From NCBI RefSeq assembly GCF_000015585.1, contig NC_008789.1, positions 1,710,001-1,742,000 of the forward strand: DNA of 32,000 nucleotides, in the 5' to 3' direction. The position numbers were made by a program, and so were the translations under genes. Under the pieces are notes generated by a model that worked only from the letters and a program-made list of their open reading frames with translations, was not told the origin of the DNA and did not search any database. Positions 1 through 13,563 of this stretch are shown here, one piece after another (position 1 is the first letter of the stretch; each line of letters begins with the position of its first letter). Origin of the DNA: Halorhodospira halophila SL1. Lineage in GTDB: Bacteria; Pseudomonadota; Gammaproteobacteria; Nitrococcales; Halorhodospiraceae.

Positions 1-617
1 ACCCCACTTCCCGGAACGTACTCCTGGACCATCCACTCGGTACCCCACGCGCTGTGGGCGTTCAGAAAATCCTGCAGCTCGCTGTGTCGATTAAAATAGC
101 GGATGCGTACCGGACTGGGCCTGCCACGATCTGAGGGTTTAACCACAACCGGGAAATGCAGATTTTCAATCCAGCTCTCTGGCTCTTCATCGGCGCGAAT
201 GTAAAGGGTCCGCGGCATAGGCACCCCGAGACGCTCGGCTACAGCTAGGGTTCCCGACTTATCCAGAACGCTTCGCGCCCGCTCTTTGTCCGGGTACATG
301 CGCAGAATGCGCTCACCGAGTACGTCATCACAAGCCGCTAAAGCGCTAAGAGCACCATCGCCGACTGGCACTACGGTATCGATACCGTAGCGATCAACAG
401 CCCCAAGGAGGCTCTCACAGAAAGCATCAAGCGAGTCATCTGGATGCTCGAGCGTCAGATATCCTTCGAGGGCTTTCGTTTTGATTGACGCTCCCTCGCC
501 GGAAAAACAAGCCCCATAGACTGGGATTCCCTTGCCACTCAGACAACGCGCGACGGGCACCACAATCCGCGGGAAATGCCCCAGCAGCAGGGTGGCAGGC
601 GGTCTGTCAATCTTCAT
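1..617 (-). CDS. ATP-grasp family ligase, N-terminal ~205 codons (3' end runs off the left edge)
   Basis: Absent from the ORF track because it is open at the window edge. Hand translation from ATG 617..615 gives MKIDRPPATLLLGHFPRIVVPVARCLSGKGIPVYGA...LHFPVVVKPSDRG...WMVQEYVPGSG with no stop. It is colinear with, and clearly paralogous to, the N-terminus of the 4117..6204 protein (MKPPVASTLILGACPRIVVPIGHCLRQRGIPVVAG...FPFPVIIKPADK...WLIQEHVSGYG). The ATG abuts the upstream stop (TGAATG). Confidence 0.7.
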   Translation of the reverse strand, partial: MKIDRPPATLLLGHFPRIVVPVARCLSGKGIPVYGACFSGEGASIKTKALEGYLTLEHPDDSLDAFCESLLGAVDRYGIDTVVPVGDGALSALAACDDVLGERILRMYPDKERARSVLDKSGTLAVAERLGVPMPRTLYIRADEEPESWIENLHFPVVVKPSDRGRPSPVRIRYFNRHSELQDFLNAHSAWGTEWMVQEYVPGSG

Positions 618-1532
618 TCAGCACCCATCACGACGGCTCGCTTCAAGCCACTGCAGCGTCCATTCCGCCACCTGATTGCGCCAGACGGCACGAGAGAAGG
701 TGTGATCCGCTCCCTCCAGGCGGCGGGTAGTAACTCGTTCCTGATCAAGCAGCCCAAGCCACGAGTCGTTTCGTGTCGCCGTATCGACAAACTCGGCCGC
801 AGTCAGGTCGTCTCCGCTAAGCACGAGCAGGATCGGCCCGTCGAAGCGGCGCCAGCCGGCTGCCATGCGCACCGGGAGAGGATCCCCAGGGGCCAAACCT
901 GCTGACTGACCCTCCGGCCAATGGCCACGCCGCGCATTCGCCCGCAGGACAACAGCTACCTTTTCCATTAGCCCGCGGGCAGATCTCGTCAGACTGAGTC
1001 GCCCCGTGAGGAGGCGCATCCAGAAGTCCCCACTGAACAGTTGCCGCCAGTAGTAGTGGCGCAGATAAGCACTGGCAATCCCGGCCTCAGTGCGCACCCA
1101 AGGATTGAGGAGCACAAGCCCGCTGATTCGGCGATCCTGCGACGCATAGAGCAATGCCGCGGAGGCCGCATCACACAACCCCCAAACCACAACCTCGCGA
1201 ACCGCTGGAGTAAGCCGCTGAAACTCATCGATCGCGCAGCCGATATCCGTCTCTACAGCGTCGTAGCCGCGCTGCTCGCCACCCGCATCTCCCATGCCTC
1301 GATAGTCAAAACGAAAGACCGGAACCCCGTGCTCCGCTAGGTAGCGGGCGAGCAGGAGAAACTGTCGGTGACTACCGATCCGATACTGCGGACCACCGAC
1401 GACCAACAGAAGACCACGCTCAGCGCTTTGCAACGGGCGGTGGAGGATGCCGGGCAACTCTTCCCCTTCAATGCGGAAGACGGTCGCCTCCTCCAGTGCC
1501 TCAGCACAGGCTAGCCGTGTTGCACTTGCCAT
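618..1532 (-). CDS. alpha/beta hydrolase, exosortase A (PEP-CTERM/EpsH) system-associated hydrolase 1 type
   Basis: 304 aa. The string LLVVGGPQYRIGSHRQFLLLARYLAEHGVPVFRFDYRGMGD...VVVWGLCDAASAALLYA...LLNPWVRTE matches my recollection of the hydr1_PEP family (TIGR03100). Nucleophile elbow is G-L-C-D-A (Cys120, codon 1175..1173), and a GADHTF His motif lies near the C-terminus. GAGGAAA RBS precedes the ATG. The gene overlaps the upstream gene by 22 nt. Confidence 0.8.
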   Translation of the reverse strand: MASATRLACAEALEEATVFRIEGEELPGILHRPLQSAERGLLLVVGGPQYRIGSHRQFLLLARYLAEHGVPVFRFDYRGMGDAGGEQRGYDAVETDIGCAIDEFQRLTPAVREVVVWGLCDAASAALLYASQDRRISGLVLLNPWVRTEAGIASAYLRHYYWRQLFSGDFWMRLLTGRLSLTRSARGLMEKVAVVLRANARRGHWPEGQSAGLAPGDPLPVRMAAGWRRFDGPILLVLSGDDLTAAEFVDTATRNDSWLGLLDQERVTTRRLEGADHTFSRAVWRNQVAEWTLQWLEASRRDGC

Positions 1533-2329
1533 CGCGTGGTTTCCTCAATCAAGGCAGGTGCCGTACCAATCTCCTGGGTTGCCCAAAACGGCTCCCCGGG
1601 GAGGGCTTGTGCCTCCACCCGCACTTCTTGACTGCGCCAGCCCTGAACGATCCGCTGGCTAGCCGGAGAGAGCGAAGCCCCGCTTCCCTCCTCCTCACTA
1701 GAGCCGGACACCTCCAACCACAGAACTGAATCAGCCGGCGGCTGAAGGCGCGCACGATTAAGGGCTGCAGCTAACTGCGGGTGCAGAGTGTAGCCGGCAA
1801 TCTCCAGGGGCTCGCCCTGTTCCAACCGCTCTCGCAACGCTCGCGTAGTCTCGGCCGCCTCGCCGTTGAGCATGCCAGAAGCCATCCTCAGGCGTAAGAA
1901 TTGAGTCAAAAAGTGCTGACCATTGACCACCGGCTGCCAGAGTATGACGCCCCGCAGCGAAAAAGGCAGCCGTTCGGCCAAGTCAACCGCCAGCAGACAT
2001 CCCGCGCGCAAGCCCCATAAGGTTACCGGCCCTGGGTAGCAGTCCATGACCTCAGAAAGGCCGTCGGCCAAGTCGTCGACCCATAGTTCCCAACGACCGT
2101 CGGCGAAGTCACCGCCGCTATCACCGCAGCCGTAACAATCAGGCACAAGCACCGCCCACCCCTCGCGAGCCAGGGCGCGGGCTTGTTGCGCGATCATGCG
2201 CCGCGATTTGTTCAGCTCTTCCGCGAACGGCGGAGTGTGGAGAACAACCCCGCGAGGCTGGCGATCTTGAGGCAGAAACAAAACCTCGAAGAGGGAGCCC
2301 TGGCGACCCGCCCGAAACCTAGGGTGCAT
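1511..2329 (-). CDS. alpha/beta-fold protein, exosortase A system-associated hydrolase 2 type
   Basis: PPFAEELNKSRRMIAQQARALA...DCYGCGDSGGDF...VTLWGLRAGCLLAVDLA...LWQPVVNG..FLTQFLRLR...PFWATQEI matches my recollection of hydr2_PEP (TIGR03101). The track ORF starts at TTG 2365. ATG 2329 (MHPRF...) avoids overlap with the ACP gene; ATG 2359 is an alternative. Confidence 0.78.
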   Translation of the reverse strand: MHPRFRAGRQGSLFEVLFLPQDRQPRGVVLHTPPFAEELNKSRRMIAQQARALAREGWAVLVPDCYGCGDSGGDFADGRWELWVDDLADGLSEVMDCYPGPVTLWGLRAGCLLAVDLAERLPFSLRGVILWQPVVNGQHFLTQFLRLRMASGMLNGEAAETTRALRERLEQGEPLEIAGYTLHPQLAAALNRARLQPPADSVLWLEVSGSSEEEGSGASLSPASQRIVQGWRSQEVRVEAQALPGEPFWATQEIGTAPALIEETTRWQVQHG

Positions 2330-2336
2330 TGCCGCA

Positions 2337-2591
2337 CTAGAGTTCGTTGATCTTCCCATCAACAAAGTCTGCCAAGCTACCTAAAGTGGCGAAGGTCTCA
2401 CCACTGACCTCGTCATCCTCAATGATGAAACCAAAGCGCTCCTCGCAGGCCGTAAGCACTGAGACAACCGCCATGGAATCCAACTCCGGCAACGCTCCCA
2501 ACAGCGCGGTGTCACGATCAAAACGCTTAGCACGCCCACCTAAGCTTAGCGTAGCGTCCAAGATCCCTTTGACTTCCTCAATACTCGACAT
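2337..2591 (-). CDS. acyl carrier protein (dedicated, EPS-cassette associated)
   Basis: 84 aa from ATG 2591, with GGAG 5 nt upstream; the track ORF begins at TTG 2612. Phosphopantetheine attachment context is LGALPELDSMAVVSVL, on an acidic four-helix-sized protein. Confidence 0.8.
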   Translation of the reverse strand: MSSIEEVKGILDATLSLGGRAKRFDRDTALLGALPELDSMAVVSVLTACEERFGFIIEDDEVSGETFATLGSLADFVDGKINEL

Positions 2592-2915
2592 GCGAACTCC
2601 ACTCTCCATCAATTCGTTCCGGCAAACCCCAAGCTGTTCAGGGACACTTTAAGCCAAGCGTAGCATCCTCAAGCACCCTGCTCGGGCTTGAAGGACGTCT
2701 ACCAGACACCAAGCGGGCCAACGCGATCTCGCGGTCGCCTGGAGCGCAGCTCAAGAGTGACTACACTGAGGGCACCAGACGCGAGGATAGGCTCTCGGTC
2801 GCGCCGCAGCCAGCACCTTGAACGCGTTGCGGTCGGATCGACGACTCAAGGAAGGACGTATTGGCGAACATGACCATGTTCTTTTACCGAGATAGGCAGC
2901 TAGCAGCCGCCAGGT

Positions 2916-2930
2916 TGGCACCCCGCTTCC
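2916..2930 (+). promoter_or_regulatory. candidate sigma-54 (-24/-12) promoter for the GT4 / ATP-grasp-PTP operon
   Basis: TGGCAC-CCCGC-TTCC versus consensus TGGCAC-N5-TTGC. Spacing is correct and the -24 element is perfect, but the -12 GC reads CC. It lies 68 nt upstream of ATG 2998. Confidence 0.3.
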
Positions 2931-2997
2931 ATGTAACCAGGTCTCTTCGGCCTTCTTCAGTATCCTGCCTAACCGCACAAGGGACGGTCCCCTCGGC

Positions 2998-4083
2998 ATG
3001 AGGATCCTGTTTGTCTCCACGCTCAGTCACATCCCACAGCGAGCGAGCGGGGCCAATAGCTCAACCGATCAGCTCTGCCGCGGACTCTCATCGAGGGGGC
3101 ACCACGTGGCTGTCCTATCGAGTCTGAGAGGTGGAGACCGACTCGCTTGGTGGAACCGCCTACGGCACCACCTGACACCGGGGCAGAACCTCCCACCGGA
3201 CCGGGCATGCGGCTACCTGACCTACCGCGGTTATGCTCCCCTGAAAGATCTCGATGAGGCCTTGGGTGACTTCCGGCCCGACATTGCCGTTGCTGATGTC
3301 GGAAAGACCAGCCGTATCGCTGAAGCGCTACGGGCGCGCAGAGTCCCCACAGTGGCCTATCTACGCGACCTGGAACCGGAGACGTTCTCGGATCACCCCG
3401 TCACTGATCCACAGGTGAGCTTCATCGCCAATTCTCAGTTCACTGCCTCAGCCTATGCACAGCACCGCGACCTCCAGTGTCAGATTATCCGCCCGCTGGT
3501 TCACCCGGAGTATTACCGCGTGAATTCAACGCGCGAAGTCGCACTCCACATCAACCCCTCCCCGAAGAAAGGCATCGACATCACGCTGAATCTGGCCGAG
3601 GCTCGCCTGGACATCCCGTTCCTGCTGGTCGAAACCTGGAGTCTGGCGCGCGAGCTGCGCGAGCACTACCGCCGCCGTGCCGCCGAATTGCCCAACGTGC
3701 GTGTCGTCCCGACTCAAAGGGATATGCGAGCCTATTACGGGCGCACCCGGGTCGTCCTGGCGCCGAGTATCTGGCCGGAGACTTGGGGTCGCATTGCTAC
3801 AGAGGCTCATATCAGCGGCATCCCGGTCTTGGCCAGCACACGCGGCGGCCTGCCCGAGTCGGTGGGTCCGGGCGGAACGCTGCTGGATCCCGAAGCGCCT
3901 TTGGAGCAGTGGGTCGAGGCCCTCGGCAGGCTTTGGGACGATAGGACGGTCTACGCAAGGCTAAGCCGTGCCGCCCTGGACCACGCCGACCGGCCGGAGA
4001 TTCACCCCAAACGGGTTTTGGATGACTTTTCAGGCGTTCTCGAACAAACCCGCGCGATGGCCACAGCGTCGACTCCCGCCTAA
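2998..4083 (+). CDS. glycosyltransferase family 4 (GT-B, retaining)
   Basis: 361 aa. C-terminal E-x7-E signature ETWGRIATEAHISGIPVLASTRGGLPESVGPGG is typical of GT4/GT1 sugar transferases. Confidence 0.85.
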   Translation: MRILFVSTLSHIPQRASGANSSTDQLCRGLSSRGHHVAVLSSLRGGDRLAWWNRLRHHLTPGQNLPPDRACGYLTYRGYAPLKDLDEALGDFRPDIAVADVGKTSRIAEALRARRVPTVAYLRDLEPETFSDHPVTDPQVSFIANSQFTASAYAQHRDLQCQIIRPLVHPEYYRVNSTREVALHINPSPKKGIDITLNLAEARLDIPFLLVETWSLARELREHYRRRAAELPNVRVVPTQRDMRAYYGRTRVVLAPSIWPETWGRIATEAHISGIPVLASTRGGLPESVGPGGTLLDPEAPLEQWVEALGRLWDDRTVYARLSRAALDHADRPEIHPKRVLDDFSGVLEQTRAMATASTPA

Positions 4084-4116
4084 GCCACGGCCACGGGGCA
4101 AAGGAGCACCCCAAGG

Positions 4117-6204
4117 ATGAAACCGCCCGTCGCTTCCACGCTGATCCTCGGCGCCTGCCCACGCATTGTCGTCCCGATCGGGCACTGCCTGCGCCAGCGC
4201 GGGATTCCCGTCGTGGCCGGCTCACTGTTGCCAGGCAGACCGGCCATCCGCAGCCGCACCCTGCGCGAGTTTCGGCGGCTTACGCCACCCTCGCTGTGCC
4301 AGGACACGTTCCGGGAGGAGTTGAATCGGCTGATCGTCGACCACAACGTCGACACCCTGATCCCCACCGGCGACGAGGTGCTGACCGCGCTGGCCCGCGA
4401 AGAAGCCTTTTGGCGCCAGCGCCTCCACGTCTGCAGCCCCCGCTGGGCGGTCGCCCGGCAGGCCCTGGACAAGGCAGAGATTGCACGGCTGGCCGAGGAA
4501 CGTGGCATGGCGTGTCCGCGCAGCCTGCTCGTCCGTCGGTCCGAGGATATCGAGCACCTGCCCAATGACTTCCCCTTCCCGGTCATCATCAAGCCCGCTG
4601 ACAAAACTCGGAGCAACCAGCTGCGCCTGCGCAGCTTCGACGAACCGAGCGCCCTCAAACGCTTCGTTGCCCGATACGCCCGGGCGGAGGAGCCGTGGCT
4701 GATCCAAGAGCACGTTAGCGGTTACGGCTTGGGGATCGCGGCGTTGATGCACGACGGCGAGCCGCTGACCCTGTTCCAGCACAGCCGGCTTAAGGAGTAC
4801 CCGATCACCGGCGGGGTGGCCACACGCTGTGTTGCCCAACCGGTCGATCCCGGGCTTCGAGAGCAGACGATTGAACTGCTGGGCGCCCTCCGTTGGCAGG
4901 GCATAGCCATGGTCGAGTACCGCTACAATCCGATGACCGACCGCAACGTGCTTATTGAAGTCAACGGCCACTACCAGGAGTCCGTGGCCCTCCCGCTCCA
5001 TTGCGGGGTCAACCTGCCCTGGTACGAGTGGCAGCTCGCTCACGGGCAACACCCGCAGCCTGCGGGTTACCGGCCAGGGCGACGGCTGCGGTGGCTGGCC
5101 GGGGATCTGCAGCGCCTGCCGGAGGCCGCGGGGGCAGTCGTCGCCGGGGAGATTCCGATCCGGCAGGCGGCCCACGATACCCTCACCCTCTTCACCGACT
5201 TCCTGGCGCCCTGCACCCACGATGCCCTATGGCGATTCCGAGATCCGCTCCCCGCGCTGGACGAGCTCAACCGGGCCTTACGCCAGGTCGGCACCAAGGT
5301 GTTGCGGAAATTCGGCAAGCTGACCCTGCCGCAGCGCGGGTACCAGTCCTTGGACCGGATGATTGCCCTCGGGCCGCGCGGAGCGTGGCAATACGGGCGG
5401 CTAAGCCGCAGCAGTCCACCGACCCCGCCGGAGCCACAAGAGCTACGAAAGGTACGCACGATCCTGTTCATCTGCCACGGCAATATCGCCCGGAGTGCCA
5501 TGAGCGCTGCATGGCTGCGCAGCGCGCTGCAGGAGCGGGGCGCGGAGCACGTGACAGTGGAATCAGCCGGGGTCTCAGCATCGGATGGCAAGGGCGCCGA
5601 TCCGGATGCCGCCGGGGCAGCGCCCTGCTTTGGCATCTCGCTTGAGTCCCACCGGGCCCGTCGCGTCACCGCCGCCCATGTGGCTGCGACCGACGCCATC
5701 TTCGTGATGGACTACCTGAACTGGGTGCGCCTCATGCGGCACTTCCCGGAGGCGAACGGGAAGACCTGGCTACTCGGCAGCCTGGACCCGGAGGCAGGTC
5801 GTTTGGCCGAGTACGGAGCGGAAATCCGCGACCCCTATGGGCAAGGTAGGCGCCAGACCGAGGCCTGCTTCTTGCAAATCGTCGCCTGCCTGCAGGAACT
5901 GCTCCGACATCTAACGGGCTCAGAACAGACTAAGCCCTCCCCTCCGTTAAGAGATGTCCCCCCCCACCTCTTACTAGCGCGCCCTCTTAACGCCGCCCCG
6001 ATTCGCGAACCCGGAACCCGTCACCGTCCGGCTCGGCGTACTGCGCAAGCCAATCGCGTAACGCCGGGTCGGCACCTTCGCGGGTCGTCACCGTGGCATC
6101 GAGATGGTAGCTGCCGTCTCGCGAGACCTGCCATTGGCCGTCCAGTGCGACGGGGCCGCCCTGGTCGTGGACCTCTCCGTAGGCACGGTTGTCCGAGCTG
6201 CTGA
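4117..6204 (+). CDS. ATP-grasp ligase fused to a C-terminal low-molecular-weight protein-tyrosine phosphatase (Wzb-like) domain; 3' end uncertain
   Basis: Residues ~1-400 are the ATP-grasp part (FPVIIKPADK, WLIQEHVSGYG, MVEYRY..., LIEVNGHYQES). A Pro-rich linker (SSPPTPPEPQ) follows. The LMW-PTP P-loop is C-H-G-N-I-A-R-S (Cys453, TGC 5473..5475) and the general-acid loop is IRDPYG (Asp572, 5830..5832). AAGGAG RBS at 4100..4105. The last ~80-95 codons are Arg/Pro-rich with atypical A/T-ending codons and overlap the convergent gene by 218 nt. Confidence 0.75.
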   Translation: MKPPVASTLILGACPRIVVPIGHCLRQRGIPVVAGSLLPGRPAIRSRTLREFRRLTPPSLCQDTFREELNRLIVDHNVDTLIPTGDEVLTALAREEAFWRQRLHVCSPRWAVARQALDKAEIARLAEERGMACPRSLLVRRSEDIEHLPNDFPFPVIIKPADKTRSNQLRLRSFDEPSALKRFVARYARAEEPWLIQEHVSGYGLGIAALMHDGEPLTLFQHSRLKEYPITGGVATRCVAQPVDPGLREQTIELLGALRWQGIAMVEYRYNPMTDRNVLIEVNGHYQESVALPLHCGVNLPWYEWQLAHGQHPQPAGYRPGRRLRWLAGDLQRLPEAAGAVVAGEIPIRQAAHDTLTLFTDFLAPCTHDALWRFRDPLPALDELNRALRQVGTKVLRKFGKLTLPQRGYQSLDRMIALGPRGAWQYGRLSRSSPPTPPEPQELRKVRTILFICHGNIARSAMSAAWLRSALQERGAEHVTVESAGVSASDGKGADPDAAGAAPCFGISLESHRARRVTAAHVAATDAIFVMDYLNWVRLMRHFPEANGKTWLLGSLDPEAGRLAEYGAEIRDPYGQGRRQTEACFLQIVACLQELLRHLTGSEQTKPSPPLRDVPPHLLLARPLNAAPIREPGTRHRPARRTAQANRVTPGRHLRGSSPWHRDGSCRLARPAIGRPVRRGRPGRGPLRRHGCPSC

Positions 6205-6775
6205 CCGACGACACCACACTGCCCAGATCCAACCGTTCGCCTTCGTGGGTGACAGTCAAATCACGGCCTGTGACGCGCCCCTCAACCGACCGGAGCTCGC
6301 CGTCGTTGCTCAAGGACAGGCGATCGATCTGGTAGGCGACCGTACCGCTAACCGGCGGCAGTTCGACCCCGCGCTGGCTTGCCATCTGGCGCAGGCGATC
6401 CATAGAGACCTCGCCGCTCCCCTCAGAGACTTGCCAGCCGCCAGCCGAGCGAGTGGCCACCCCCTGGAAACGGGCGTCGTCGAGACTACCGTCCAGGTCC
6501 ACCTTCAGCCGACCAGCGACCAGGGAGCGACCCTGAACCTCCCAGGCGACATCCAGGGTGCCGGGGTCCACCCCCCAGAGCCGGGGGATTTCAAGCCGCT
6601 GCACCCGTCCTGCGCGCAAGCTGCCCTCCACCTCCGCTCTGCCCCAGGCAGCCGGAACCGGGAGGTGGCGTTCGGCGGCGTTCCAGGCTGACCCCGCGGG
6701 GATATGGCCGACGGCGTAGACGGTCCCGGCGACCAGACCCAAGAGAAGCAGCACCGTGATGACAAGCTTTCTCAT
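5987..6775 (-). CDS. GspN-like (type II secretion protein N family) membrane-anchored periplasmic protein, orphan
   Basis: 262 aa with an N-terminal TM anchor (MRKLVITVLLLLGLVAGTVYAV). The overall pattern and the C-terminal LRDWLAQYAEPDGDGFRVRESGRR resemble GspN/EpsN proteins as I remember them (W-L...G...SGR ending). No other gsp genes are nearby. Confidence 0.5.
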   Translation of the reverse strand: MRKLVITVLLLLGLVAGTVYAVGHIPAGSAWNAAERHLPVPAAWGRAEVEGSLRAGRVQRLEIPRLWGVDPGTLDVAWEVQGRSLVAGRLKVDLDGSLDDARFQGVATRSAGGWQVSEGSGEVSMDRLRQMASQRGVELPPVSGTVAYQIDRLSLSNDGELRSVEGRVTGRDLTVTHEGERLDLGSVVSSVSSSDNRAYGEVHDQGGPVALDGQWQVSRDGSYHLDATVTTREGADPALRDWLAQYAEPDGDGFRVRESGRR

Positions 6776-6841: not shown

Positions 6842-7381
6842 TCAAGGCCGGAGCAGTTCCATCAGCCGCTCCTGCCGGGTCGCCACGGCTTCTCGATCGG
6901 CATCGGGCACCGAAGCGAGGAAGTCCGTCACCCGCTCCCGCTGCGCCTTGATGTCGGCAATGATTTCGCCCTTGGCGGCATCGCCGAGATGCGGATTCTC
7001 CTCGATCTGCTCGATGGCCCCCTCCAACTGGGCTTGTAATTCCCGCGGGTCGCCGGCCTCCAAAGCGATCAGCGCGCGGTAGATCCGCGCGCCCTCTTCC
7101 GCCCAGGCCGCAGCCCCTTCATAGCCGTATAGTTCGAGCGCTGACGCCGGATCTTCCAGCGTCTTGGCTGCCTCTCGGAAAGCCGTCTCGCTCTTGCCCA
7201 CACCGCGCAGCTCACTCGCCGGGTGCCAATCTTCCATGCCCTGCTCCGCCGCGTGGTCATGCAGGGCGCCGACGGCCTCCTGCCACTGCTCGACTCGCTC
7301 GGGGGTCAGGGCCAGCGCCATCCCGGGCACGAGCCCCCCGAGCAATGTCAGCGCGGTCACCAAAGCGCAGCGGTTGCCCAT
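6842..7381 (-). CDS. secreted hypothetical protein (predicted all-helical, acidic)
   Basis: 179 aa from ATG 7381, with GGAG 7 nt upstream; the track ORF starts at TTG 7387. Signal peptide ALVTALTLLGGLVPGMALA|L. Strong G/C third-position bias. No family recognised. Confidence 0.6.
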   Translation of the reverse strand: MGNRCALVTALTLLGGLVPGMALALTPERVEQWQEAVGALHDHAAEQGMEDWHPASELRGVGKSETAFREAAKTLEDPASALELYGYEGAAAWAEEGARIYRALIALEAGDPRELQAQLEGAIEQIEENPHLGDAAKGEIIADIKAQRERVTDFLASVPDADREAVATRQERLMELLRP

Positions 7382-7468
7382 AGGCAAACTCCAGTCATTT
7401 GCATGTTTCGGCCGGAGGGTATCAGCCTACGCAGCCTGCCGCTCGGGAGCATGTGTGGGCCAATGGAT

Positions 7469-8668
7469 TTAGCGCATCCCGTGCTTAGCCAGCAGCTCGT
7501 AGATCGTTGGCCGCGTAACTCCCAGTTCCGTCGCTGCGCGCGAGATGTTCCCGTTGCACCGGCCCAAGGCCTCGGCGACGACGCGTCGCTCCGCCTCATC
7601 GCGCACCTCGCGCAACCTGGGCAGATCCCGCTGAACGGTCAGAGAACGCGGCAGCGGCAGCCCGAGGTCTTCGGCACGAATGGCACCTCCCTCCGAGAGG
7701 ATCACCGCTCGCCGGAGCGCGTTTTCCAGTTCACGAACGTTGCCAGGCCAGCGATAGGCGGCGATCACGGCCAAGGCATCACTGCCCAGCTTCCGCGCTC
7801 GGGCCTTGTGCTGCCGGACCATTCCTTTGAGAAGCGCGTGGGCAATCAGTGCGGGATCTCCTGGCCGCTCGCGCAGGGGCGGAAGCCGCAGTTGAACCTC
7901 GGCAACCCGGTAATAGAAGTCGTCACGGAACGCTCCCTCTCCCATCCGCTCGACCAAGTCCCGGTTGGTCGCGCAAACCACCCGGACGTCCACCGGGATC
8001 TCTCGTCGCCCCCCCAAGCGCTGAACCGTCCGCTGTTGCAGGAAGCGCAGCAGCTTCGCCTGAACCTCCAGGGGCAACTCTCCGATCTCGTCGAGGAATA
8101 GGGTTCCCCCATTGGCACGCTCGATCCGCCCCACCCGGGCCCGGTAGGCCCCCGTAAAGGCGCCACGCTCAAACCCGAACAGCTCACTCTCAAGCAGTTC
8201 CGAAGGGATCGCGGCGCAGTTAATCGCCTCCAGCGGAGCAGCGGATCGCACTCGGTTCAGCCCATGCAGAGCCTTCGCAAAGAGCTCCTTCCCGGTGCCA
8301 CTCTCACCGAGAAGCAGGACGGTAGCATCCGAGGGAGCGAGCCGCTCCGTATCCCGACAAAGCTGGATCATGCGCGGGTCACCGGTCACCAAGCCCAGCC
8401 GGCGTGGCCCCGCATCGCCAGATGGGCTCCGCCCCCGGCCCAGCGGTGCGTCAGACTCTTCATACCGGTCCGGATCCGCCCCTTCGGAAAGCGCCCTTTC
8501 CACAGCCCGGATCAGCGGTGCGGCGGCTTCCGGCTCCACGTAGAAACCCGCCTCAAGGGGGATCGAAGTCGCACCAGCCGACCGCGCTCTTCCCACCCGC
8601 AACCCCTGCCCCTCTTCAATGAGGTACCAGACCCTGGAGCTGGCCTCGGTACTTTCCGCTACGGCCAT
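7469..8668 (-). CDS. sigma-54-dependent transcriptional activator (bacterial enhancer-binding protein, Fis-type HTH)
   Basis: Walker A GESGTGKE, Walker B LFLDEIGEL, sigma-54 contact motif GAFTGA, and C-terminal HTH ISRAATELGVTRPTIYELLAKHG. The ~105-aa N-terminal region has no receiver-domain Asp pocket. Start taken at ATG 8668 (GGGAGG upstream); the track ORF starts at TTG 8728. Confidence 0.9.
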   Translation of the reverse strand: MAVAESTEASSRVWYLIEEGQGLRVGRARSAGATSIPLEAGFYVEPEAAAPLIRAVERALSEGADPDRYEESDAPLGRGRSPSGDAGPRRLGLVTGDPRMIQLCRDTERLAPSDATVLLLGESGTGKELFAKALHGLNRVRSAAPLEAINCAAIPSELLESELFGFERGAFTGAYRARVGRIERANGGTLFLDEIGELPLEVQAKLLRFLQQRTVQRLGGRREIPVDVRVVCATNRDLVERMGEGAFRDDFYYRVAEVQLRLPPLRERPGDPALIAHALLKGMVRQHKARARKLGSDALAVIAAYRWPGNVRELENALRRAVILSEGGAIRAEDLGLPLPRSLTVQRDLPRLREVRDEAERRVVAEALGRCNGNISRAATELGVTRPTIYELLAKHGMR

Positions 8669-8782
8669 CGCTTTGAGACCTCCCTGGCGGTCCGCACTCC
8701 GGAATACGTCCCCGGTTAACGGAGCCAAGAACCCGCGCTAGATACTAGGGGAATGGCACTGGGCGGCTCGGCAGCCCGGTAA

Positions 8783-8985: not shown

Positions 8986-9177
8986 TCAATAACCGGCGTC
9001 CTCGCCGGCATCCTCAGCATCCTCGCCAGCCTCTTCGAGGGAGTCACCCGCCTCTTCGACCGCATCATCCACTTCCTCGCCTGCGTCCTCCGCCGGCCCG
9101 CTGTTGCAGCCACTTAGCGCGACGAGGAACAGTCCCATCACCAACGCGATACCGATTGCTTTTAGATATTTCATCAT
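8986..9177 (-). CDS. small polyanionic lipoprotein
   Basis: 63 aa with lipobox L-S-G-C and an excellent RBS (CAGGAGAG). The mature 40-aa part, CNSGPAEDAGEEVDDAVEEAGDSLEEAGEDAEDAGEDAGY, has 17 Asp/Glu, no basic residue, and reiterated (E/D)(E/D)AG units. Confidence 0.65.
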   Translation of the reverse strand: MMKYLKAIGIALVMGLFLVALSGCNSGPAEDAGEEVDDAVEEAGDSLEEAGEDAEDAGEDAGY

Positions 9178-10436: not shown

Positions 10437-10667
10437 ACCGCGCCCTGCACTAACGCCCCCGCTTTCTCCTAAGCCCTCGGGGCAGACAGGCGCAGCTGCG
10501 GCGTCTCATCCGCGACAATACTCACTATTGCCCACCGCTGCCTCTTTCGTGCAGACCTTTCTGGTTTTCTGCTACGGCTTGAACGCGCCGCAGACAGGCT
10601 GCCCGCATCGGCCTCCGTGCGCCCAGGCTGTAGAATGTCGCCCGTTGCAGGTACCAAGGAGCCCCCC

Positions 10668-11519
10668 ATGGCCAACCGCTACGATCGCCCCCCGCACCCG
10701 GAAGGCCCCTTCAACGCCGACCGCGTGGCCGATAGCGATCCCCCCGAGCAGGAAGAGCTGGGGGCGTTCCAGGAGCGCATGCGCTTCCGGGCCCGGGAGC
10801 GTACGCTGCTGTTCCTTGGCGCGCTGGGGGTTGCCGCCGTCCTGGTGCTGGCAACGCGCCACGAGCCCCAGATCGCTGAGTTCATGAACGCCAGTGCAGA
10901 GGCGGTCGGGGTCGCGCTGCTGGGCCTGACGATCGGAGCCATCGTCCTCTGGGGCTACACCCTGCACCAGCTCATGGACCCGATCTTCGGTGATGTCCTG
11001 GGGGCACGCGGCGACCTGGAGGTGATTGACCCCGATGTGCCCGATTATCGCCGCCTGCTGATCGTAGCGGCGCTCATCAACCAGGCAGCGACCGGCTACT
11101 TCCGCGCTCTGCGCGAGACCTGCGACCGCGAGGTCCGGCTCGGTGATCTACGCGCCCTCCGCCAGTATCTGCGCCAGCTAAAGAACCCGAACCTGGCCGG
11201 CGCCGCCGCACCACCACCCACCCCCCAGGACGACTGGGAGCGAGGATACGTGGTGTGGTCGGAGCACAGTTACCGGTTCTACCTGGATGAGCTGGATACG
11301 CTGGACTACATCGAGTTCCTCGACGGGGACCTGGAAGGGGTCTCCCTCTACTTCGGCCGCCCCGGAGAAGGGAGCTTCCCCTACGAGATCGTCACCTGCC
11401 CAGACGTAGTCCGAGAGGCCTTCGGTAGCCAGAGCGGCCTGGAGGAGCGGATCGACGAAGAGCTGGAGGATGTGCTGGAGGTCTTCGGCGGCTGGGGGCA
11501 GGACTTGGTGCTCTATTAG
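10668..11519 (+). CDS. hypothetical membrane protein (two TM helices, acidic C-terminal domain)
   Basis: 283 aa from ATG 10668, preceded by AAGGAG. TM segments are TLLFLGALGVAAVLVLAT and AVGVALLGLTIGAIVLWGYTL. G/C third-position bias is consistent with coding. No family recognised. Confidence 0.7.
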   Translation: MANRYDRPPHPEGPFNADRVADSDPPEQEELGAFQERMRFRARERTLLFLGALGVAAVLVLATRHEPQIAEFMNASAEAVGVALLGLTIGAIVLWGYTLHQLMDPIFGDVLGARGDLEVIDPDVPDYRRLLIVAALINQAATGYFRALRETCDREVRLGDLRALRQYLRQLKNPNLAGAAAPPPTPQDDWERGYVVWSEHSYRFYLDELDTLDYIEFLDGDLEGVSLYFGRPGEGSFPYEIVTCPDVVREAFGSQSGLEERIDEELEDVLEVFGGWGQDLVLY

Positions 11520-13548: not shown

Positions 13549-13563
13549 GCAATCCCTGTGCCA
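13549..13563 (-). promoter_or_regulatory. sigma-54 promoter (glnAp2 type)
   Basis: The minus strand reads TGGCAC-AGGGA-TTGC, a perfect -24/-12 consensus, about 60 nt upstream of the glnA ATG. Confidence 0.8.

Follow-up and report, generated by a model that had tools for sequence, protein, structure and literature searches.

The cycling of BY-kinases and their phosphatases controls the polymerization of capsules and exopolysaccharides (EPS). The phosphatases Wzb, AmsI and Etp, which partner the BY-kinases Wzc, AmsA and Etk, are free proteins of about 150 aa, and Wzb is encoded beside wza and wzc. In nitrifiers, haloalkaliphiles and soil Acidobacteria, the formation of flocs and biofilms is based on exosortase-A (XrtA)/PEP-CTERM loci. 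The words "phosphatase" and "tyrosine" are absent from the founding paper on XrtA (Haft et al. 2006, PMC1569441), and we found no phosphatase partner described for these loci. An association of a ligase with a phosphatase is known from the HS:2 capsule of Campylobacter jejuni, in which the ATP-grasp enzyme Cj1438C attaches either serinol-phosphate or ethanolamine-phosphate to glucuronate; the phosphate is afterwards taken off by the phosphatase Cj1435, and a PLP enzyme supplies the amine (PMC11800379).

Here we describe a gene of Halorhodospira halophila SL1 in which an ATP-grasp domain and a phosphatase of the Wzb type share one reading frame. The window, by which we mean the whole stretch of DNA that was analyzed, is 32,000 nt long. 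The ORF within it (4117..6204, + strand) encodes a 695-aa protein composed, in order, of an ATP-grasp domain, a helical hairpin, a linker, an LMW tyrosine phosphatase (LMW-PTP) domain and a read-through tail.

Layout of the fusion ORF and state of its two halves

No stop codon lies between the ATP-grasp and LMW-PTP parts of the ORF, which bears out the original prediction that the in-frame fusion is real, and the same 695-aa protein is found, identical, in two NCBI assemblies and in one independent read-set assembly. It had also been proposed that no ATG or GTG with a ribosome-binding site precedes the phosphatase part. This holds insofar as no internal start has a Shine-Dalgarno-like sequence upstream, but an in-frame ATG does exist at codon 415; the further in-frame starts near the junction (GTG at codon 395, TTG at codons 396 and 412) likewise lack a Shine-Dalgarno-like sequence. 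We reject translation of the phosphatase on its own from ATG415, given this missing sequence and the conserved junction. The ATP-grasp part, first given as some 400 residues, has a core of only about 375 (aa 1-375; 4117..5241, + strand), and the rest is a two-helix hairpin (aa 376-431; 5242..5409, + strand; helices at residues 378-403 and 406-431 in the model) that belongs to the phosphatase module. This hairpin, of about 50-55 aa, is basic and conserved, and it goes with the phosphatase where the genes are split. A variable Pro-rich linker, SSPPTPPEPQELRK, starts at residue 432 (5410..5451, + strand). NCBI names the product of 4117..6204 "protein tyrosine phosphatase".

The LMW-PTP (LMWPc) domain occupies aa 449-596 (5461..5904, + strand). 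It matches Pfam PF01451 over the full length of the profile (residues 449-596 against positions 1-144 of 144) at 86.2 bits, compared with a cut-off of 23.2, and it carries both a C-X5-R-(S/T) P-loop (CHGNIARS, residues 453-460, with the nucleophile Cys453 and Arg459; 5473..5496, + strand) and a D-P-Y general-acid loop (D572-P573-Y574, in DPYG from residue 572; 5830..5838, + strand). Cys453 and Asp572 are where they had been placed, and the phosphatase core is indeed complete, with C453, G455, N456, S460, D572 and P573 invariant in 30 homologues, at least 90% of which also keep R459 and Y574. E. coli Wzb is 36% identical to the domain, with the SAG...GKGADP loop aligned without gaps, and among solved structures the domain matches AmsI best by sequence (110 bits), closely followed by E. 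coli Wzb (109 bits). The NCBIfam Wzb/Etp equivalogs NF007520 and NF008486 are not reached (60.3 vs 243 bits and 52.6 vs 247 bits, respectively). The C-terminal half of the SL1 protein is predicted, from its sequence, to be a catalytically intact Wzb-type LMW phosphotyrosine phosphatase. Two other identities were considered and rejected: matches to arsenate reductases are weak (at most 44 bits) and partial, and the P-loop carries Ile457 rather than the Thr that marks arginine phosphatases of the YwlE type.

The N-terminal half shows only weak sequence matches to ATP-grasp families (CPSase_L_D2 and PRK12767). An AlphaFold2 model of the fusion is confident as one body (pLDDT 90.2, pTM 0.85), and its N-terminal half has an ATP-grasp (carboxylate-amine ligase) fold similar to those of CPS, biotin carboxylase, L-amino-acid ligases and 2pn1 (Foldseek E values of about 1e-16 to 1e-14). 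Residues K159, E267, E281 and N283, which are invariant among the homologues, are present in SL1. Other positions of the ligase half have been lost specifically in SL1 (T122I, R223S, R285H, W287Q and G288E), including three, T122, R285 and W287, that are invariant in 78 of 78 homologues. The affected motif reads EVNGHYQES (4957..4983, + strand), where the homologues displayed have E(V/I)NGR(Y/F/C)WG(S/T), usually EVNGRYWGS. In the CPS-like ATP-grasp structure 2pn1, the residue at the R285 column is the Arg of an E-x-N-P-R motif (EINPR). With His285, SL1 lacks the Arg of the E-x-N-x-R motif of the CPS/biotin-carboxylase type, which we take to have a catalytic role in those two enzymes. The family PF15632 (ATPgrasp_Ter) is on record for homologues P0002-P0037 and has no match in the SL1 protein at E <= 0.01. 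At columns that are at least 90% conserved, SL1 deviates 13 times, always in the ligase half and never in the phosphatase half, and relative to sister sequences the ligase half has diverged faster than the phosphatase half.

The SL1 ligase half therefore looks catalytically degenerate. Having lost invariant catalytic-site residues, it would probably serve as a scaffold only, and ligation in SL1 would be done by the intact standalone paralog next door. The SL1 copy may thus be a natural separation-of-function allele, in that its phosphatase is intact, the ligase that bears it is seemingly dead, and an intact ligase paralog adjoins.

The last 87 aa of the SL1 protein (5944..6204, + strand) lie past the stop position of homologues and form a non-homologous tail that is rich in Arg, Pro and Gly and is not conserved. 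In SL1, the stop homologous to that of a Halorhodospira relative (TAA, 5948-5950) has ended up in the +1 frame; because of an indel in the last codons before it, translation reads through into the antisense of the next gene, a convergent T2SS-N (GspN-like) gene (5987..6775, - strand), which the tail overlaps by 218 nt. Judged on these alignments, the tail is a frameshift read-through product with no predicted conserved function.

Genomic setting and spread of the architecture

The EPS setting suspected for the fusion is borne out by XrtA-system marker genes beside it that score above curated cut-offs: hydr1_PEP (340 vs 168), hydr2_PEP (288 vs 203), ligase_PEP_1 (710 vs 592) and dCO2ase_PEP1 (591 vs 478). 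By these associated markers, the SL1 locus is classified as an exosortase-A (PEP-CTERM) polysaccharide cluster. An exosortase gene and PEP-CTERM proteins do not occur within the H. halophila stretch covered. Upstream of the fusion ORF, a GT4 glycosyltransferase gene (2998..4083, + strand), whose best matches, MshA and BshA, are both far sub-threshold, ends 33 nt before it; given the same strand and the 33-nt gap, the two probably form one operon. On the opposite strand is an exosortase-A-associated cassette (618..2612) of genes for ACP (2337-2612, - strand), hydrolase 2 (1511-2365, - strand) and hydrolase 1 (618-1532, - strand). Directly after the hydrolase 1 stop comes the ATG of the standalone ATP-grasp paralog, of which the N-terminal 205 aa fall in the window (1..617, - strand). 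The idea that this paralog might carry the same fusion fails: at its full length of 412 aa, it is ATP-grasp only, without LMWPc, and it keeps the ligase consensus motif residues. A sigma-54 activator related to the PEP-CTERM-box regulator, without a receiver domain, is encoded at 7469..8728 (- strand). A scan for promoters and terminators around the operon gave nothing above shuffles, and an overall search for the sigma-54 consensus revealed no enrichment (26 matches vs 32.6 expected).

The architecture is not unique to SL1: clustering of proteins at 90% identity gives about 31 clusters with the fusion. An initial word-indexed search with the 170-aa phosphatase domain gave 5 matches and was replaced by an exhaustive search of representatives. 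There are 219 relatives among species-representative genomes, and a single-ORF fusion is present in 46 of the 84 ATP-grasp genes scored (best loci), across at least six phyla; the taxa include Gamma-, Beta- and Alphaproteobacteria, Nitrospirota, Acidobacteriota, Gemmatimonas and Eremiobacteria. The pairing recurs in many bacteria of soil and water. The phosphatase module is encoded separately, by the gene immediately upstream of the ligase gene, in 15 acidobacterial loci, and no LMW-PTP occurs within 10 kb of about 19 ligase orthologues. The module is also fused to a polysaccharide deacetylase (P0135, P0148 and P0182), where the fusion again adjoins a standalone ATP-grasp gene, and to a FemAB-like GNAT (P0091). 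We found no curated family model for the ATP-grasp and LMWPc fusion, including among the XrtA-associated NCBIfam families, and literature searches on ATP-grasp with LMWPc, or ATP-grasp with PEP-CTERM or exosortase, returned nothing on this architecture. Fusion of the phosphatase module to EPS-modifying enzymes besides ATP-grasp had not been foreseen in the original prediction, nor had the degenerate look of the SL1 ligase half or the frameshift tail.

Candidate roles of the phosphatase module

To look for a kinase partner, we used the kinase domain of E. coli Wzc as a phmmer query and then a BY-kinase HMM built from 3 sequences. No BY-kinase was found within 10 kb of the fusion in 80 related genome loci, the only matches being MinD in the window and a weak partial one in locus L012, and none was found in SL1 in the window or in the ~9.4 kb further left that was covered. 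Because no kinase lies within 10 kb of any fusion locus, kinase adjacency is unusable as evidence. An LMW-PTP HMM, to which E. coli Wzb scores 107 bits, reported no second LMW-PTP within 10 kb across the 80 genome loci; one locus, L090, has the fusion and a second extended LMW-PTP.

Walking two XrtA clusters (L093 and L094), related to each other and of Nitrospirota type, supplied all of the kinase-cluster evidence. Both encode a BY-kinase and Wza 10-15 kb upstream of the fusion. The gene order is two Poly_export genes, BY-kinase, sensor, response regulator and Bac_transf, followed by XrtA deacetylase, FemAB, epimerase, FemAB-like and then the fusion. The BY-kinase combines Wzz/GNVR/AAA_31 domains with Walker A, A' and B motifs and a C-terminal YYGRY. 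The stretch from wza to wzc contains no wzb, and across about 32 kb the fused domain is the sole LMW-PTP. Since it is the sole LMW-PTP in two clusters that have both Wza and a BY-kinase, we prefer the reading in which the phosphatase half is a Wzb-equivalent tethered to repeat-unit-modifying enzymes, and we put its chance of being correct at about even.

On this preferred reading, the gene would encode a two-enzyme protein of an exosortase-A (PEP-CTERM) type EPS cluster. The ligase family adjoins FemAB-like aminoacyl-transferases, deacetylases, aminotransferases and glycosyltransferases, and its members would most likely put an amino-acid-type decoration on the sugar repeat unit. The phosphatase half would be the cluster's cognate phosphatase for a Wzc-like BY-kinase, tethered rather than free beside wza/wzc, and the outcome would be a coupling of the tyrosine-phosphorylation cycling of the polymerization and export machinery to repeat-unit modification. 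Counter to this, in the loci examined the module goes with modifying enzymes and never with the kinase, Wza or the polymerase, and such company is the pattern expected of consecutive pathway enzymes.

A second possibility, which we consider realistic though rather unlikely, is that the substrate of the LMW-PTP module is a phosphorylated intermediate, other than a protein, of the ligase/deacetylase/FemAB-like decoration pathway, for example a just-ligated phospho-amine or a sugar-phosphate acceptor from which it would remove the phosphate. The fusion would then help to pass the substrate from one step to the next. In favor of this, the ATP-grasp enzyme, polysaccharide deacetylase and FemAB-like GNAT of one neighborhood each occur fused or adjacent to the module, a BY-kinase or Wza is never adjacent in the 80 loci, and the pTM of 0.85 suggests a fixed two-domain body. 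The SL1 locus has a PLP decarboxylase and the GT4 with its sub-threshold MshA/BshA matches, a gene set that recalls the mycothiol synthesis order of glycosyltransferase, phosphatase, deacetylase and ligase. Ligation by Cj1438C followed by dephosphorylation by Cj1435 in the C. jejuni capsule offers a precedent, although that phosphatase is of the HAD type rather than an LMW-PTP and that ATP-grasp enzyme is of the TupA type (PMC11800379). Further points speak against such a role. Every feature of phosphotyrosine-type LMW-PTPs is kept, among them the Tyr that follows Asp-Pro and a loop like that of Wzb, and the best structural relatives by sequence, AmsI and Wzb, are kinase-partner phosphatases. 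Alkyl phosphates are poor LMW-PTP substrates. The SL1 phosphatase is conserved even though the ligase in cis appears to be decaying, and the two walked clusters would be left with no kinase phosphatase. A more specific version, in which the module is an obligate subunit of a deacetylase/FemAB-like/ATP-grasp decoration complex that acts on a phospho-amine, a sugar-phosphate or a lipid-linked phosphate, is in our estimate a tentative one as well. If the role were metabolic, it would be a new use of the LMW-PTP fold in polysaccharide chemistry, not kinase regulation. Both functions offered in the original prediction, phosphotyrosine control and action on a phosphorylated small molecule, remain live hypotheses.

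The specific form of phosphotyrosine control that was suggested first, in which tyrosine phosphorylation switches the ligation step, appears improbable. Here the ligase or its partners would be the BY-kinase substrate, and the fused phosphatase would mainly reset the ligase's own phosphotyrosine. In its favor, sugar-nucleotide dehydrogenases and glycosyltransferases are among the known substrates of BY-kinases. Of the ligase-domain tyrosines, Y318 is invariant and Y303 nearly so across 16 aligned sequences, and Y286, Y303 and Y318 are each at least 90% conserved in 30 fused homologues; in the model, moreover, the fusion is a single rigid body. Yet the phosphatase also exists apart from the ligase, as a gene of its own or on deacetylase and GNAT scaffolds, and in SL1 it is conserved while the ligase appears inactive.

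Finally, the notion that the fusion is an artefact or pseudogene, in which two neighboring SL1 genes were merged through a recent frameshift or an error of sequencing or assembly, draws on the frameshift-derived 87-aa tail, the odd substitutions in the ligase half and a stop that breaks the gene in a related MAG (L007), but it is extremely improbable given a junction that is in frame and kept in dozens of genomes of several phyla, an identical protein in three independent assemblies and fully intact phosphatase catalytic residues. For the junction it is already refuted, since neither chance nor a local sequencing error could account for a fusion kept in dozens of genomes; a frameshift explains the C-terminal tail only.

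Comparison with described systems

For the ATP-grasp half, the closest described families are PF15632, PRK12767 and 2pn1, the last with a TM score of 0.77 on the target and with the K159, E281 and N283 positions conserved, and the L-amino-acid ligases 3vot and 4wd3 are among the best Foldseek matches. All sequence scores to these families are far below cut-offs, and their members lack the C-terminal hairpin and phosphatase; the motif Arg is missing in the SL1 copy. With XrtA/PEP-CTERM loci, the SL1 neighborhood shares hydrolase 1, hydrolase 2, the acyl-CoA ligase and the PLP decarboxylase, and related clusters carry the XrtA-system polysaccharide deacetylase.

The C. jejuni pair Cj1438C and Cj1435 resembles the SL1 locus in that both combine an ATP-grasp enzyme, a phosphatase and a PLP enzyme, the last a decarboxylase in SL1. 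However, ligase and phosphatase are not joined in C. jejuni, the ligase being TupA-like and fused to a GT2 and the phosphatase being of the HAD type, and they have no sequence relationship to the SL1 proteins, so that the likeness would be one of logic only.

The closest relatives of the phosphatase half are Wzb, AmsI and Etp, with which it shares the LMWPc fold, the C-X5-R-S P-loop and the D-P-Y loop, and its SAG...GKGADP loop is as long as in Wzb. Where clusters were walked, the setting is also shared, namely a polysaccharide cluster with Wza and a BY-kinase. In contrast to these free phosphatases, the domain described here has a helical N-terminal extension and an ATP-grasp enzyme, fused or adjacent, and whereas Wzb is encoded next to wza/wzc, the fused domain lies at least 10 kb from them. 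If the fused domain is the phosphatase partner of XrtA/PEP-CTERM loci, it would provide a link undescribed for Wzb systems, in which tyrosine-phosphorylation control is wired physically to the enzymes that decorate the repeat unit.

The SL1 fusion protein

The in-frame fusion of an ATP-grasp ligase to a Wzb-like phosphatase, put forward in the original prediction, is real. The window is part of the chromosome of Halorhodospira halophila SL1. The 695-aa product of the ORF at 4117-6204 (+) is 100% identical to the SL1 protein named 'protein tyrosine phosphatase' at NCBI; a second assembly and one made independently from a read set also encode it, giving the same protein in three SL1 assemblies. 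The predicted motif positions on the plus strand were exact for the Pro-rich linker (from residue 432), the P-loop CHGNIARS (from residue 453, nt 5473) and the DPYG loop (from residue 572, nt 5830), and the phosphatase core is complete as proposed, with the Pfam LMWPc profile spanning residues 449-596 end to end (86 bits; cut-off 23). Domain profile searches gave only weak ATP-grasp matches for the N-terminal part. An AlphaFold2 model built with 30 sequences was confident (pLDDT 90.2, pTM 0.85); its first ~375 residues resemble carbamoyl-phosphate synthetase (CPS), biotin carboxylase, L-amino-acid ligases and 2pn1, an orphan structure (Foldseek E from 1e-16 to 1e-14), and two long helices (378-403 and 406-431) lie between ligase and phosphatase.

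Among 78 homologues, 91 columns are at least 90% conserved, and SL1 differs at 13 of them, all 13 in the ligase half and none in the phosphatase half. The changes T122I, R285H and W287Q affect positions that are invariant elsewhere, and R223S and G288E positions that are 99% conserved. Within the ligase half (4117-5241), the motif EVNGHYQES at 4957-4983 (+) stands where homologues have EVNGRYWGS. The R285 position aligns with the Arg of the 2pn1 E-I-N-P-R motif, which we take to be the residue that stabilizes the acyl-phosphate in CPS and biotin carboxylase. Records of Pfam ATPgrasp_Ter exist for homologues but not for the SL1 fusion, and relative to sister sequences divergence in SL1 has been faster in the ligase half than in the phosphatase half. 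The left-hand ATP-grasp paralog (1-617, minus strand) keeps the consensus. We lean towards a ligase half that is catalytically impaired and retained as a scaffold. In the phosphatase half, C453, G455, N456, S460, D572 and P573 are invariant among 30 homologues, R459 and Y574 are kept in at least 90% of them, and on these residues this half looks catalytically intact.

Homologues stop ~10-35 residues past the phosphatase. The 87-residue SL1 tail (5944-6204) overlaps the convergent T2SS-N-like gene (5987-6775, minus strand) in antisense by 218 nt, and a TAA at 5948-5950 in the +1 frame is homologous to the stop of a 75%-identical Halorhodospira relative. The tail is read-through caused by an indel in the last codons, with the ancestral stop at 5948 out of frame.

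Spread of the ligase-phosphatase coupling

Co-occurrence of ATP-grasp and LMWPc domains, which the original prediction singled out for checking, extends over several phyla: ~31 protein clusters carry ATPgrasp_Ter and LMWPc in a single chain (588-630 aa, identity down to 33%), and 219 relatives turned up when one genome per species was scanned. Layouts were sorted with our own HMMs over six-frame ORFs from the best 80 of these 219 loci and the contigs of four proteins (P0001, P0011, P0030 and P0016), taking in 84 ATP-grasp genes. Ligase and phosphatase form one ORF, in that order, in 46 of the 84 (Halorhodospira, Thioalkalivibrio, Nitrosomonas/Nitrosospira, several Alphaproteobacteria, Nitrospirota, Gemmatimonas, Acidobacteriota and Eremiobacteria). 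The phosphatase is its own gene immediately 5' of the ligase gene in 15, from Acidobacteria; 19 ligases, mostly acidobacterial, have no LMW-PTP within 10 kb; and the remaining four, the SL1 paralog among them, are second, standalone ligase copies where the locus also holds an LMW-PTP. In a neighbour-joining tree the fused form is distributed across phyla, and the split and 'alone' forms fall mostly into nested acidobacterial clades, a few 'alone' copies being scattered outside them. One orthologous fusion gene, in an Ectothiorhodospiraceae MAG (L007, 8357-9970), is split into two ORFs by a stop near 9056, reflecting either a pseudogene or an assembly error.

Because the separate phosphatases retain a basic helical N-extension of ~50 aa matching fusion residues ~395-445, this segment is part of the phosphatase module. 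Searched exhaustively with the phosphatase domain, 1.84 billion representatives yielded nearest relatives of three kinds: fusions 560-640 aa long, many 200-300 aa proteins carrying the N-extension, and the module joined to other enzymes. The helix-extended module is fused N-terminally to polysaccharide deacetylases in three proteins (P0135, P0148 and P0182) and C-terminally to a FemAB-like GNAT (Acetyltransf_6 domain) in P0091; locus L092 (2374-4053) is listed with these. The P0135 gene is divergent from an adjoining standalone ATPgrasp_Ter gene, so that, with the layouts described, the ATP-grasp link holds in three different gene arrangements. The module is thus promiscuous in its fusion partners and always stays with decorating enzymes. 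A metagenomic locus (L090) has a fusion at 2795-4639 and, 1 kb downstream, a second LMW-PTP (5644-6522; 292 aa) with a long N-extension. The same search returned, outside the window, a 1679-aa protein (P0047) in which five or six LMWPc repeats in tandem (337 bits in total) come after PEP-utilising and PPDK_N domains, a very unusual architecture for the LMW-PTP fold.

Both domains are of known kinds. Some members have already been labelled by automated pipelines (for example, JGI 'protein-tyrosine-phosphatase/predicted ATP-grasp superfamily ATP-dependent carboligase'), the fusion falls short of the cut-off of every NCBIfam model, and we found no paper on the architecture. What is new is the conserved phosphatase module with its helical extension, together with the way it is tethered to enzymes that decorate EPS.

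Polysaccharide gene clusters around the fusion

Leftward, SL1 has a polysaccharide cluster of the exosortase-A (PEP-CTERM) type. Its ACP, hydrolase 2, hydrolase 1, acyl-CoA ligase and PLP decarboxylase each score above curated 'exosortase A system-associated' cut-offs, and the left side also holds GT2, DegT, FemAB-like and sulfotransferase genes. The paralog begins at nt 617 (minus strand), immediately behind the hydrolase 1 stop; it was to be checked for the same fusion and is a 412-aa ATP-grasp protein with no phosphatase domain. Nor did the BY-kinase that was to be sought elsewhere in the locus turn up in the window or in the ~9.4 kb to its left. Right of ~9 kb the window holds housekeeping genes (for example, GGDEF, glnA, minCD and htpG).

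The match of a sigma-54 activator (7469-8728, minus strand) to the PEP-CTERM-box response regulator model is confined to positions 139-445 (429 bits; cut-off 503); the activator has no receiver domain and begins with ~110 unrelated residues. A sigma-54-like element, TGGCACCCCGCTTCC (2916-2930, plus strand), with one mismatch, in the -12 GC, precedes the GT4 ATG by 68 nt, and glnA has a perfect TGGCAC-N5-TTGC (13549-13563, minus strand) upstream of it; overall, the pattern shows no enrichment over shuffles. Neither the 181-aa ORF at 6842-7387 (minus strand), placed between the T2SS-N-like gene and the activator, nor the 300-aa ORF at 10617-11519 (plus strand) has a Pfam or NCBIfam match.

In other genomes too, the genes flanking the fusion serve polysaccharide modification. 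Most often the neighbour is a FemAB-like/Acetyltransf_6 gene (upstream, 18/55 match Acetyltransf_6 and 7/55 FemAB, in lists that may overlap); next come PIG-L deacetylases, GT2, flippases and sulfotransferases. Neither a BY-kinase nor Wza was found within 10 kb at 80 genome loci, and an HMM search found no second LMW-PTP within 10 kb at any of them, a meaningful absence because the HMM gives E. coli Wzb 107 bits. We walked upstream in two Nitrospirota-type clusters (L093 and L094), which share the order Poly_export (two genes), BY-kinase (Wzz/GNVR/P-loop), sensor, response regulator, Bac_transf, XrtA polysaccharide deacetylase, FemAB, epimerase, squalene-cyclase-like gene, FemAB-like gene and fusion; L093 alone has an outer-membrane beta-barrel gene between Poly_export and the BY-kinase, and unrelated housekeeping genes lie 5' of Poly_export in both. 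The BY-kinases have GEGKT as Walker A, IDGDMRNP as Walker A' and ILDAPP as Walker B motif, with YYGRY at the C-terminal end. In neither cluster is there a wzb between wza and wzc, and when the walks are joined with the downstream 10 kb, ~32 kb contain no LMW-PTP other than the fused domain.

Role of the fused phosphatase

In XrtA-type EPS clusters, then, the phosphatase is coupled covalently or genomically to an ATP-grasp ligase. Our best reading, which we hold with about even confidence, is that it would be the cognate phosphatase of the cluster's BY-kinase and that the fusion would tether it to decoration enzymes. This reading is supported by the lack of any other LMW-PTP in the two complete clusters, by the module's phosphotyrosine-type features and by the persistence of the phosphatase in SL1 while the ligase half appears to be decaying. 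The main alternative, a pathway phosphatase working on a phosphorylated intermediate, strikes us as rather less probable. It is favoured by the fusion of the module to three different decorating enzymes and has a precedent in C. jejuni, where the ATP-grasp enzyme Cj1438C joins a phospho-amine to glucuronate and Cj1435 then strips the phosphate (PMC11800379). Phosphotyrosine regulation of the ligase in cis is improbable. An artefact is the least tenable account and highly improbable, a sequencing artefact or chance ORF being excluded by conservation of the fusion across phyla and by catalytic residues that are invariant or at least 90% conserved.

The kinase partnership that we favour has its closest comparison in the stand-alone Wzb and AmsI, which are the top PDB matches of the SL1 phosphatase half. 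This half is 36% identical to E. coli Wzb and its SAG...GKGADP loop aligns ungapped, which by sequence comparison marks it as Wzb-like.
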